Positions 45,839 to 45,955 of a stretch of DNA of 64,000 nt are shown here, piece by piece (position 1 is the stretch's first letter; the number at the start of each line of letters is the position of its first letter). Below the pieces are notes generated by a model that worked only from the letters and a program-made list of their open reading frames with translations, made no database searches and was not told the origin of the DNA. The position numbers and the translations under genes are program-made. This stretch comes from a virus. Lineage: Duplodnaviria > Heunggongvirae > Uroviricota > Caudoviricetes. Location: IMG/VR virus record IMGVR_UViG_3300012979_000001, positions 35,375 to 99,374 of that record. One strand, 5' to 3'.

Positions 45839-45867
45839 TTTGTCAGTGTGTTATAATAAATATAGAC
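45839..45867 (+). promoter_or_regulatory. palindromic-box promoter of the sigma-factor operon
   Basis: TTGACAAAGGTTTGTCAGTGTGTTATAAT. Confidence 0.65.
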
Positions 45868-45906
45868 CAAATAAATAGACATAAGACTTATTTTTTTTAA
45901 CAAAAA

Positions 45907-45924
45907 GTGACAAACCTTTGTCTA
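45907..45924 (+). promoter_or_regulatory. operator-only palindrome variant GTGACAAACCTTTGTCTA upstream of RBS of ORF 45956
   Basis: preceded by T8 and hairpin; box TTTTTTTAACAnnAGTGACAAAnnTTTGTC shared with 62853. Confidence 0.45.
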
Positions 45925-45955
45925 TACAAACTAAAATAGAAAGGTGGTGGATAAG

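Follow-up and report, generated by a model that had tools for sequence, protein, structure and literature searches.

The DNA analysed here, referred to as the window, is a 64-kb stretch (28.8% G+C) from a large, uncultured phage. This account concerns a palindrome, TGACAAAnnTTTGTC, which lies inside most strong early promoters of the phage and which recurs in four 5' leaders with no recognisable promoter of its own there. Two of these leaders are treated as a pair: leader 1 precedes an operon that begins with a Gp157 gene and a sigma-factor gene, and leader 2 precedes an operon whose first gene is the open reading frame (ORF) 62915-63259, hereafter ORF62915. A preliminary description had pictured both leaders as one device, in which a promoter is followed by a hairpin, a run of seven or eight T and then an operator-only palindrome that would act as a roadblock or attenuator in front of the genes. 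The features of the two leaders, all on the + strand, are as follows (class A is defined below).

45829-45857, + strand: promoter P1 of leader 1 (class A), TTGACAAAGGTTTGTCAGTGTGTTATAAT; 12/12 consensus bases and an extended TG, with the palindrome in the -35/spacer segment; 6 lineages
45860-45867, + strand: start-region box ATATAGAC of leader 1, conserved in relatives
45891-45898, + strand: T8 run of leader 1, with no hairpin ahead of it
45907-45923, + strand: promoter-less palindrome GTGACAAACCTTTGTCT, exact TGACAAAnnTTTGTC core at 45908-45922, about +44 to +60; core invariant in 6 lineages
45941-45949, + strand: Shine-Dalgarno sequence AAGGTGGTG of the Gp157 gene, whose ATG is at 45956
45956-46510, + strand: Gp157 / Mu Gam-like (Sipho_Gp157) gene, first in the operon; Pfam PF05565, E 1e-21; PHROG 253
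46512-47036, + strand: phage sigma-factor gene, second in the operon; Sigma70_r2 E 1.6e-10, weak r4; PHROG 351, E 4e-17
62720-62748, + strand: promoter P1 of leader 2 (class A); 12/12 consensus bases and TG; conserved in 9 lineages
62751-62758, + strand: start-region box ATATAGAC of leader 2, exact word, conserved
62796-62837, + strand: RNA hairpin of leader 2; 12-bp stem, 18-nt loop with an invariant ATTTTAGA; -16.2 kcal/mol
62839-62845, + strand: T7 run of leader 2, one base after the stem, a terminator-like tail
62853-62869, + strand: promoter-less palindrome GTGACAAAGGTTTGTCA, exact TGACAAAnnTTTGTC at 62854-62868, about +99 to +115; invariant in 9 lineages
62873-62882, + strand: TTATGTAAAC box, 10 nt, at the -10 position relative to the leader palindrome; invariant in 9/9 leader-2 lineages
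62897-62905, + strand: Shine-Dalgarno sequence AAGGTGGTG of ORF62915, exact word
62915-63259, + strand: ORF62915, first gene of the leader-2 operon, 114 aa; no Pfam or PHROG match

Leader 1 was compared in an alignment of six lineages (the window and five relatives), including a distant clade whose Gp157 proteins are 51-54% identical, and leader 2 in the regions upstream of ORF62915 homologues from nine lineages whose proteins are 63-100% identical. The metagenomic relatives lie on contigs of 107-211 kb, named by L and a number where they have to be told apart. Homologues of ORF62915 form 22 clusters, each on large phage contigs.

Much of the earlier picture of these leaders stands. Both promoters are 12/12 sigma-70-type sites with an extended TG, both start regions carry ATATAGAC, which follows the -10 at no other promoter in the window, both leaders hold an exact promoter-less TGACAAAnnTTTGTC, and the sigma-factor gene (regions r2 and r4) directly follows the controlled Gp157 gene. 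Unmentioned there were the TTATGTAAAC box, the Shine-Dalgarno sequence AAGGTGGTG and the palindrome copy at 30200-30216. The 9-mer AAGGTGGTG occurs twice in 64 kb, both times in leaders 1 and 2. Common to the two leaders are thus the ATATAGAC start region, a T-run, a palindrome after a non-T base and the Shine-Dalgarno sequence AAGGTGGTG; that they are paralogous cassettes is supported by their sequences. Their two downstream proteins, Gp157 and the ORF62915 product, share a weak coiled-coil-like match of 47 residues (E 4e-4).

The window holds 13 distinct exact TGACAAAnnTTTGTC sites, against none in 100 dinucleotide-preserving shuffles, and 51 matches with up to two mismatches, against 5.9 expected. 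At its usual sites the palindrome is 16-18 bp long. Fourteen sites form the -35/spacer segment of perfect sigma-70-type (sigmaA consensus) promoters, which we call class A (consensus tTTTtc.A..TaAC-TTGACAAAnnTTTGTCA-n-TnTGnTATAAT). In these the palindrome takes in the -35 hexamer and extends 11 bp into the spacer, which is 17 bp long and leads to a perfect -10, while upstream of genuine class A promoters a terminator T-run is followed by 9 nt and then TTGACA. The right half-site, TTTGTC, falls within the promoter spacer, where sigmaA makes no base-specific contacts, and equals the -35 hexamer in information content; the variable positions are the two central bases of the palindrome (nn) and the 3 nt after it. 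Some ten equally strong consensus promoters lack the right half-site (class B, including those at 4612, 13081, 22024, 33097, 33528 and 40349), and several promoters without it also occur on the minus strand. Since about ten equally good promoters do without the palindrome, it is a separable regulatory mark, that of a regulon, and not "the promoter" itself. Changes within the promoter copies are one-sided and never compensatory (TTTGCC at 36670, TTTGAC at 19133, ATTGTC at 27487 and 37052), which argues against a hairpin or cruciform function at these sites.

Two other identities for the palindrome were considered and dropped. A larger palindrome around the core (TAACAT...ATGTAA) is present in the window, but relatives do not keep its upstream arm. 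Ends of IS200-like or REP-like mobile elements were rejected as well, the sites being tied to promoters; a PHROG "transposase" match at 25038-25820 is without Pfam support. A literature search with the palindrome words returned nothing relevant.

Promoter-less copies sit in four 5' leaders (45907-45923, 62853-62869, 5748-5767 and 30200-30216), all within 5' untranslated regions and 15-55 nt upstream of the start codon. The base preceding TGACA is always T in the promoters and G, C or A in the leader-2 copies. The leader copies are kept across 6-9 phage lineages while the leader flanks diverge. Both halves are retained where a sigmaA -10 is absent, supporting the palindrome as a promoter-independent unit. 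The distant clade has an operator variant, TGACAAATAGTTGTCA, in its promoter copies and its leader copy alike, as expected if one trans-acting factor reads them all; the operator centre is AATAGTT there, against AAAnnTTT in the window's clade.

A relative also suggests how such copies arise. In L163 (ENA ERZ27286968 k141_1173053, positions 9832-9990) the Gp157/sigma leader holds three tandem palindrome cassettes: a full promoter, a second full promoter (ATGACA-17-TATAAT) with the perfect extended -10 TGTTATAAT, and a copy followed by TTAGGTAAAC. Cassettes therefore duplicate, and promoter and promoter-less copies are interconvertible.

The hairpin is where the two leaders part. The stem-loop of leader 2 covaries across its nine lineages: 94% of cells are paired, five pairs are changed on both sides, the changes in the stem are compensatory or involve wobble pairs, and only 1-2 of 500 shuffles match this. 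A simple terminator scan had passed over it owing to its unusually large 18-nt loop. The T-run behind it shrinks from T8 to T5 across lineages, and to T3 in L162 (T5 or T3 in 4/9). The gap between T-run and palindrome is fixed at 7-9 nt in all nine, with a linker of variable sequence, and ATATATATAGACACTA at the transcript start is likewise conserved among them. From this sequence, P1 transcripts should terminate in part at the leader-2 hairpin and U-run.

Leader 1 has the T8 run and no stem before it; the minimum free energy is 0 kcal/mol both for 45866-45900 and for the 48 nt upstream, and over its full length the leader is no more stably folded than shuffles (z = -0.02). In none of the six leader-1 lineages does a stable stem stand ahead of the T-rich stretch. 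The stable, G+C-containing stem-loop that characterises an intrinsic terminator is thus found in leader 2 and is absent from leader 1, and the claim of a hairpin followed by T7-8 is true of leader 2 alone. The same applies to the box said to be shared, TTTTTTTAACAnnAGTGACAAAnnTTTGTC, which matches literally at 62839-62868 and needs three n rather than two to accommodate leader 1. As a hairpin with a T-run behind it is not common to both leaders, a common attenuator of terminator and roadblock cannot explain leader 1. This leader looks like a deletion derivative of a leader-2-like cassette that lost its hairpin, because leader 1 of L134 still has a piece similar to the 3' arm of the hairpin in leader 2.

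The loop octamer ATTTTAGA occurs three times in leader 2: before the hairpin (62787-62794), in its loop (62812-62819) and between Shine-Dalgarno sequence and ATG (62906-62913). Window-wide it is found 23 times against 13.9 expected, with a strong bias to the + strand and often just upstream of a Shine-Dalgarno sequence. It could be the target of an RNA-binding factor, or simply a preferred context upstream of Shine-Dalgarno sequences.

Whether the leader copies of leaders 1 and 2 are "operator-only", as first described, turns on the TTATGTAAAC box. Besides its invariance in leader 2, the box is found in leader 1 of 3-4 of the six lineages, the distant clade included, and in L001, L134 and L164 the leader-1 palindrome is followed by TTATGTAAA. 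Its position is always 2-3 nt past the palindrome, i.e. 16-18 bp after nTGACA; in the window's own leader 1 it is displaced and degenerate (TATACAAAC). Against the sigmaA -35, the leader copies score 5/6 (GTGACA, CTGACA or ATGACA), the first base never being T in the nine leader-2 lineages. A sigmaA -10 depends most on the A at -11 and the T at -7. No -10 with these bases (A2, T6) lies 16-18 bp downstream of the leader copies, where TGTAAA, GTAAAC and TAAACA are found instead. A promoter scan returned only TTGTCA-17-AATAAT at these copies, by way of the other half-site. The exception is the second copy in L163, with its TGTTATAAT. The label is therefore insecure for leaders 1 and 2: an invariant box occupies the -10 position, the copies lie behind a terminator or T-run just as genuine promoters do, and L163 has a full extended -10.

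Searches beyond the two leaders did not turn up more such elements. As a general promoter element TTATGTAAA was discarded, with 80 matches at up to one mismatch in the window against 84 expected, and it is absent from other intergenic DNA of the relatives. The palindrome combined with TGTAAA occurs nowhere beyond these two leaders in each genome, and some 230 kb of related sequence has no further intergenic TATGTAAAC, so within the regions seen the element does not form a general promoter class. An ATG-TAA mini-ORF inside TTATGTAAAC was also rejected, because no Shine-Dalgarno sequence is conserved for it and L163, with TTAGGTAAAC, has lost the ATG. A MerR-type promoter combines a MerR-family protein with a dyad operator in a spacer stretched to 19-20 bp. 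Here the spacers would be 18-20 bp if the -10 is tentatively taken as TAAAC or TAAAAT, and the proteins scanned showed no MerR-family domain.

The remaining copies lie elsewhere in the window:

5694-5722, + strand: class A promoter before ORF 5785
5748-5767, + strand: variant palindrome TTGACAATTTATTTTGTCAA in the leader of ORF 5785-6504 (ORF5785); 20 bp, half-sites 2 bp further apart, abutting the Shine-Dalgarno sequence
30200-30216, + strand: promoter-less palindrome TTGACAAATTTTTGTCA, between tRNA-Gln and the Hsp20 gene 30260-30658; conserved in L015
3739-3756, - strand: variant palindrome AAGACAAAAGTTTGTCTA, between a terminator and the class B promoter of the helix-turn-helix gene 3212-3598(-)

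The ORF5785 copy, 20 bp long and not 18, had been recognised before with coordinates one base off. In all four lineages that have it, it directly adjoins the Shine-Dalgarno sequence, so that a -10 would not fit and it cannot be a promoter. The copy at 30200 cannot be one either, as it has no promoter nearby and lies inside the tRNA/hsp20 transcription unit. Neither copy has a terminator ahead of it. The arms of the ORF5785 copy, TTGACAA/TTGTCAA, are separated by 6 bp in the window, 4 in L003, 3 in L166 and 4 in L167 (loops TTTATT, ACCA, TTA and ACCT). Because the arms are kept while their spacing drifts between lineages, this copy is closer in appearance to a hairpin than to a dimer site of rigid, fixed spacing. 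In L166 the promoter upstream of it lacks the right half-site, and the leader hairpin is kept.

The position of the 3739-3756 palindrome is conserved in L166 and L167. In two further relatives, L004 (IMGVR_UViG_3300045988_166467, positions 2860-2960) and L006, a gene for a 92-aa HU-family protein lies behind a double-operator leader, with a class A promoter and a second palindrome 44 bp downstream. This HU homologue matches bacterial HU in the PDB (E 6e-28) and SPO1 TF1 (1wtu, E 2e-12); the window has no orthologue of it.

The reading that we tentatively hold is that one dimeric regulator binds all palindrome copies, those in the leaders providing an additional block past the start site. As (T)TGACAAAnnTTTGTCA(A), the palindrome would be the operator of a phage-specific regulon, read by a symmetric, probably dimeric and probably phage-encoded binder. 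At the 14 class A operators this binder would exclude the host sigmaA RNA polymerase, so that these units are shut off together. A second operator would lie between start site and ribosome-binding site in the Gp157/sigma, ORF62915, ORF5785 and hsp20 units, and before the HU gene in relatives. The leader copies would derive from promoter cassettes (terminator or T-run, about 8 nt, palindrome, box at the -10 position) that no longer serve as sigmaA promoters, and would give the same protein a second hold downstream of the start. This hold would block elongating polymerase or residual initiation, making the shut-off tighter or differently timed than in operons with one operator; in leader 2 it would be placed just behind the conserved hairpin and U-run. 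What the sequences show are the sites, their conservation, their independence of a -10 and the leader-2 hairpin; protein binding, repression by the bound protein, termination and a possible roadblock at the leader copies are what we infer from them, and a single DNA-binding factor probably sets the timing of the palindrome-marked operons, that of the sigma factor included. Control of this kind is known; the version predicted here is new.

Such a regulator explains the conserved right half-site in the spacer and the existence of a palindrome-free promoter class, as well as the retention of both halves without a -10, the clade variant common to promoter and leader copies, and the copies for which a promoter role is excluded. 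Candidate DNA-binding proteins are encoded in the window: the helix-turn-helix protein of 3212-3598(-), with its variant palindrome upstream (a weak HTH_28 match, E 0.001, that does not reach the Pfam cut-off), the product of 35628-36146 with its three helix-turn-helix motifs and a Ros/MucR-like protein (33586-34080), to which the HU homologue of the relatives may be added.

Several points weigh against this regulator. PDB searches with the two helix-turn-helix candidates gave nothing useful for identifying the binder. A pure operator leaves unexplained the invariant TTATGTAAAC beside the leader-1 and leader-2 copies, and the homologous copy in L163, with its perfect TGTTATAAT, is a real promoter there. 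The half-sites of the ORF5785 copy are tolerated at spacings of 3, 4 and 6 bp, which a rigid dimer would not allow. Looping between operators was considered and set aside: the distances are 63-78 bp (6.0-7.4 turns) and 133-144 bp (12.7-13.7 turns), hence they take all helical phases, and cooperative looping by the lac/gal criterion is not supported. Finally, the geometry is less than ideal for termination assisted by a roadblock: a polymerase halted about 14 bp before the site would presumably stall at the start of the T-run rather than at its end.

Other explanations start from the same features. The main rival, a strong one that we hold to be somewhat less likely than the regulator reading, is that the palindrome and TTATGTAAAC together form a bipartite second promoter, P2, in leaders 1 and 2, which would be used by a modified host polymerase or the phage sigma factor and possibly aided by a palindrome-binding protein. 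The order would then be P1, a short RNA with its terminator, P2 and the operon, with a switch from P1 to P2 during infection. An invariant box at the -10 position in 9/9 leader-2 lineages, which recurs in leader 1 of L001, L134 and L164, is what one would expect of it, and the T-run followed by 7-9 nt of variable sequence has the geometry of genuine class A promoters. A succession of promoter, structured RNA of about 100 nt, terminator and promoter is also found at 40349/40504, the L163 copy is a full ATGACA-17-TATAAT promoter, and T4 provides a precedent of two routes into middle genes (PMC2988021). T4-type appropriation, however, demands an excellent sigma-70 -10 (PMC2988021), which is absent at the leader copies; TGTAAA, GTAAAC and TAAACA each lack the -11 A and/or the -7 T. 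With a box that lacks the key sigmaA bases, P2, if a promoter, must depend on a phage sigma factor or an activator. The element's restriction to two leaders per genome (with TATGTAAAC nowhere else in the intergenic DNA searched) also speaks against P2, as do the decayed TATACAAAC box in the window's leader 1, where the start site would fall within the Shine-Dalgarno sequence, and the ORF5785 and hsp20 copies, which do not fit. A related and rather unlikely alternative gives one protein opposite effects: it would repress the 14 class A promoters and activate nTGACA leader elements with an 18-20 bp spacer. The leader -10 would be of a non-consensus TAAAC type marked by TTATGTAAAC, and activation would proceed by MerR-like remodelling of the spacer or MotA-like replacement of the -35, possibly with the phage sigma factor encoded downstream.

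Perhaps the leader palindrome instead acts as RNA, but we consider this improbable. Once transcribed it would form a 7-bp stem with a tetraloop in the 5' untranslated region, with a possible role in message stability, in RNA processing or in how readily ribosomes reach their binding site. All promoter-less copies lie where such a stem would be transcribed, the stem appears in centroid folds, the ORF5785 arms outlast changes in loop length and sequence in four lineages (a hairpin signature), and L166 lost the promoter half-site and retained the leader hairpin. Yet no copy has a compensatory substitution, the stem sequence is that of the promoter operators, which their own promoters do not transcribe, the leader-1 and leader-2 copies hold their 4-nt centre in 15/15 cases and follow the clade's operator variant, and the fold energy is modest (about -6 kcal/mol), with leader 1 as a whole folding no better than shuffles. 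More improbable again is the attenuator common to both leaders that the preliminary description proposed, in which a protein bound behind a terminator hairpin and U-run would stall polymerase and boost termination. Leader 2, with its covarying hairpin, T7 and constant 7-9 nt gap in 9/9 lineages, would suit it; leader 1, hairpin-free in 6/6 lineages, would not, nor would the leader-2 lineages with T5 only (three) or T3 (L162), the copies at 5748 and 30200 with no preceding terminator, or a stall point expected before the U-run rather than at its end. As a common device it fails. That the leader copies are relics, functionless and decaying duplicates of a spreading promoter cassette, we regard as very improbable. 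The full cassette layout common to leader copies and real promoters, the recent tandem triplication in L163 and the partly decayed look of the window's leader 1 would all be at home in such a history, but the core and TTATGTAAAC are invariant across lineages whose proteins are 51-78% identical, amid adjacent non-coding bases saturated with change, and purifying selection is therefore indicated.

There is hardly any knowledge of how genes are scheduled in large uncultured phages of low-G+C bacteria. Here one palindrome sorts strong host-type promoters into two classes and marks a few leaders, including that of the sigma-factor operon. If a single protein reads it, as in the dimeric-regulator reading, that protein would act as the master switch of early expression and be readily accessible to experiment. 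If the protein had opposite effects at promoters and leaders, the sigma and ORF62915 operons would pass from early to middle expression through one factor and one DNA word. The palindrome with its conserved TTATGTAAAC would amount to a regulated promoter of a new kind or else to a new operator architecture, and the promoter classes, the operator and the covarying hairpin would be ready parts for annotating related metagenomic phages.

The window is a minority of a genome of roughly 195 kb (genomes of the clade are about 175-210 kb). It encodes replication genes (a split DnaE-type polymerase, RecJ, a RecD2-like and a UvrD-like helicase and an SSB-like protein), together with Pnkp/RNA ligase, DNA ligase, the sigma factor and 20 tRNAs, and from 5043 on nearly all genes lie on the + strand. 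The Pfam scan covered about 60 window proteins. The window looks like the early/replication portion of the phage genome, because no structural genes were recognised among the scanned proteins, and the phage looks lytic, because no integrase or partition gene was seen within the window. Promoters for the phage sigma factor would be expected in the late-gene region. DNA searches at "near" and "distant" sensitivity matched no sequenced phage. The best protein match of DnaE is to Clostridium phage Amboise (49% identity), which was dropped as a comparator as it has neither a Gp157 homologue nor palindromic promoters. Two short related contigs are binned in a chicken-gut metagenome-assembled genome, "Candidatus Ventrenecus avicola"; this was too weak to assign a host. 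Rfam covariance models at gathering score returned only the 20 tRNAs in the window, and the leaders match no family.

Several other features of this DNA deserve mention. The segment 12438-13129 consists of three tandem units, each with a palindrome-free consensus promoter, about 100 nt and a terminator-like hairpin, with a common motif AGTCACTTCATTCATTCGA; they look like a small family of paralogous non-coding RNAs, with no Rfam match. At 4612-4800, in the divergent control region, lies a perfect palindrome-free promoter, TTGACAAGCTCGTGAGAGTGTGATATAAT, with about 190 nt of non-coding sequence under its control; this sequence is unusually rich in G+C and may be a structured RNA (again with no Rfam match). 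The segment 37051-37595 has a class A promoter and then about 510 nt free of ORFs before tRNA-Asn (37596), possibly a long RNA that is non-coding or is processed. Three further stretches (40349-40503, 33097-33205 and 36669-36735) likewise combine a promoter with a short structured RNA, a hairpin and a T-run; the hairpins have -13.5, -11.8 and -6.2 kcal/mol, respectively, before T6-T8, and the class A promoter at 40504 comes directly after the first. It appears that this phage uses short terminated transcripts as a general element of its design.

Four direct repeats, TACCTGT(G/A)A(A/G), at 33290-33340 stand upstream of a class B-driven operon that encodes the Ros/MucR-like zinc-finger protein (33586-34080) and the protein with three helix-turn-helix motifs (35628-36146); their role could be that of iterons, or one of these two regulators could bind them as an array. 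Very A+T-rich repeats of the TTTTAAA / AATTTTTAA type lie on the minus strand at 3080-3210, upstream of ORF 2101-3042(-). The DnaE-type polymerase (55754-59153) is encoded in two ORFs, 55778-57796 and 57744-59153, overlapping in the finger domain. An intein, intron or homing endonuclease is suggested to have disrupted this gene family, because in L163 a LAGLIDADG-like ORF follows the N-terminal DnaE part. In unrelated large viral contigs (L018, L031 and L062; IMGVR_UViG_3300006261_000031, 3300008363_000002) a perfect 18-bp GTGACAAAATTTTGTCAC is clustered among TGTCACAT repeats. This looks like an origin or iteron array, and the word it has in common with the operator here may be coincidence.

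Parts of this system have counterparts elsewhere. Second operators inside the transcribed region add repression at lac O2 and gal OI and in the CodY and CcpA roadblocks of Bacillus. The lac and gal auxiliary operators act through phased DNA looping, whereas the operator-to-operator distances here change helical phase freely between lineages. Dispersed repeats that control many operons together are also known from the C1 operators of phage P1 and the conserved inverted repeats (CIRs) of Streptomyces phage phiC31, where one repressor-binding sequence occurs at a dozen or more intergenic sites across a large genome; the phiC31 repeats are palindromic, like the sites described here. Both phages are temperate, their repressors maintain lysogeny, and in neither is the site made part of the -35/spacer of consensus promoters of the host type. 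TF1 of Bacillus phage SPO1 is an HU-family protein that binds at early promoters. The relatives of our phage likewise encode an HU-family protein, behind a double-operator leader; it is closer to ordinary bacterial HU, and no HU protein is known to read an 18-bp palindrome.

In T4, with its sigma appropriation by MotA/AsiA, early transcripts are extended past terminators, and middle genes also have a factor-dependent promoter whose -35 is replaced by a factor-binding box (PMC2988021). Leader 2 has the same order of early promoter, terminator and box. A T4 middle promoter combines a box centred near -30 with an excellent sigma-70 -10 (PMC2988021), however, and the leader elements here have no sigma-70-like -10, which sets them apart from T4 middle promoters. 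The MotA box is also asymmetric and unlike a -35 hexamer, whereas the box here is palindromic and contains that hexamer.

In mycobacteriophage L5 and its cluster A relatives, one repressor-binding sequence lies at the early promoter and at many further sites in short intergenic or transcribed segments, where the bound repressor stops elongation (PMC9283540). The copies at 30200, 5748, 45907 and 62853 occupy comparable positions and likewise repeat the word of the promoter operator. An L5 stoperator is an asymmetric 13-bp site whose orientation is tied to the direction of transcription (PMC9283540). It is bound by a two-domain monomer, in contrast to the palindromes of 16-18 bp described here, and L5 is temperate with about one promoter operator, whereas 14 promoters in 64 kb carry the site here. 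A gp71-like or cluster A-type immunity repressor, which joins a helix-turn-helix to a "stoperator" domain, was not noticed in the Pfam scans of about 60 window proteins, in which no search with a gp71 profile was included. Since the asymmetry that defines the L5 sites is not found, the phage system is not a member of the L5 family; judged by analogy of function, we nevertheless regard the L5 operator/stoperator system as its closest counterpart.

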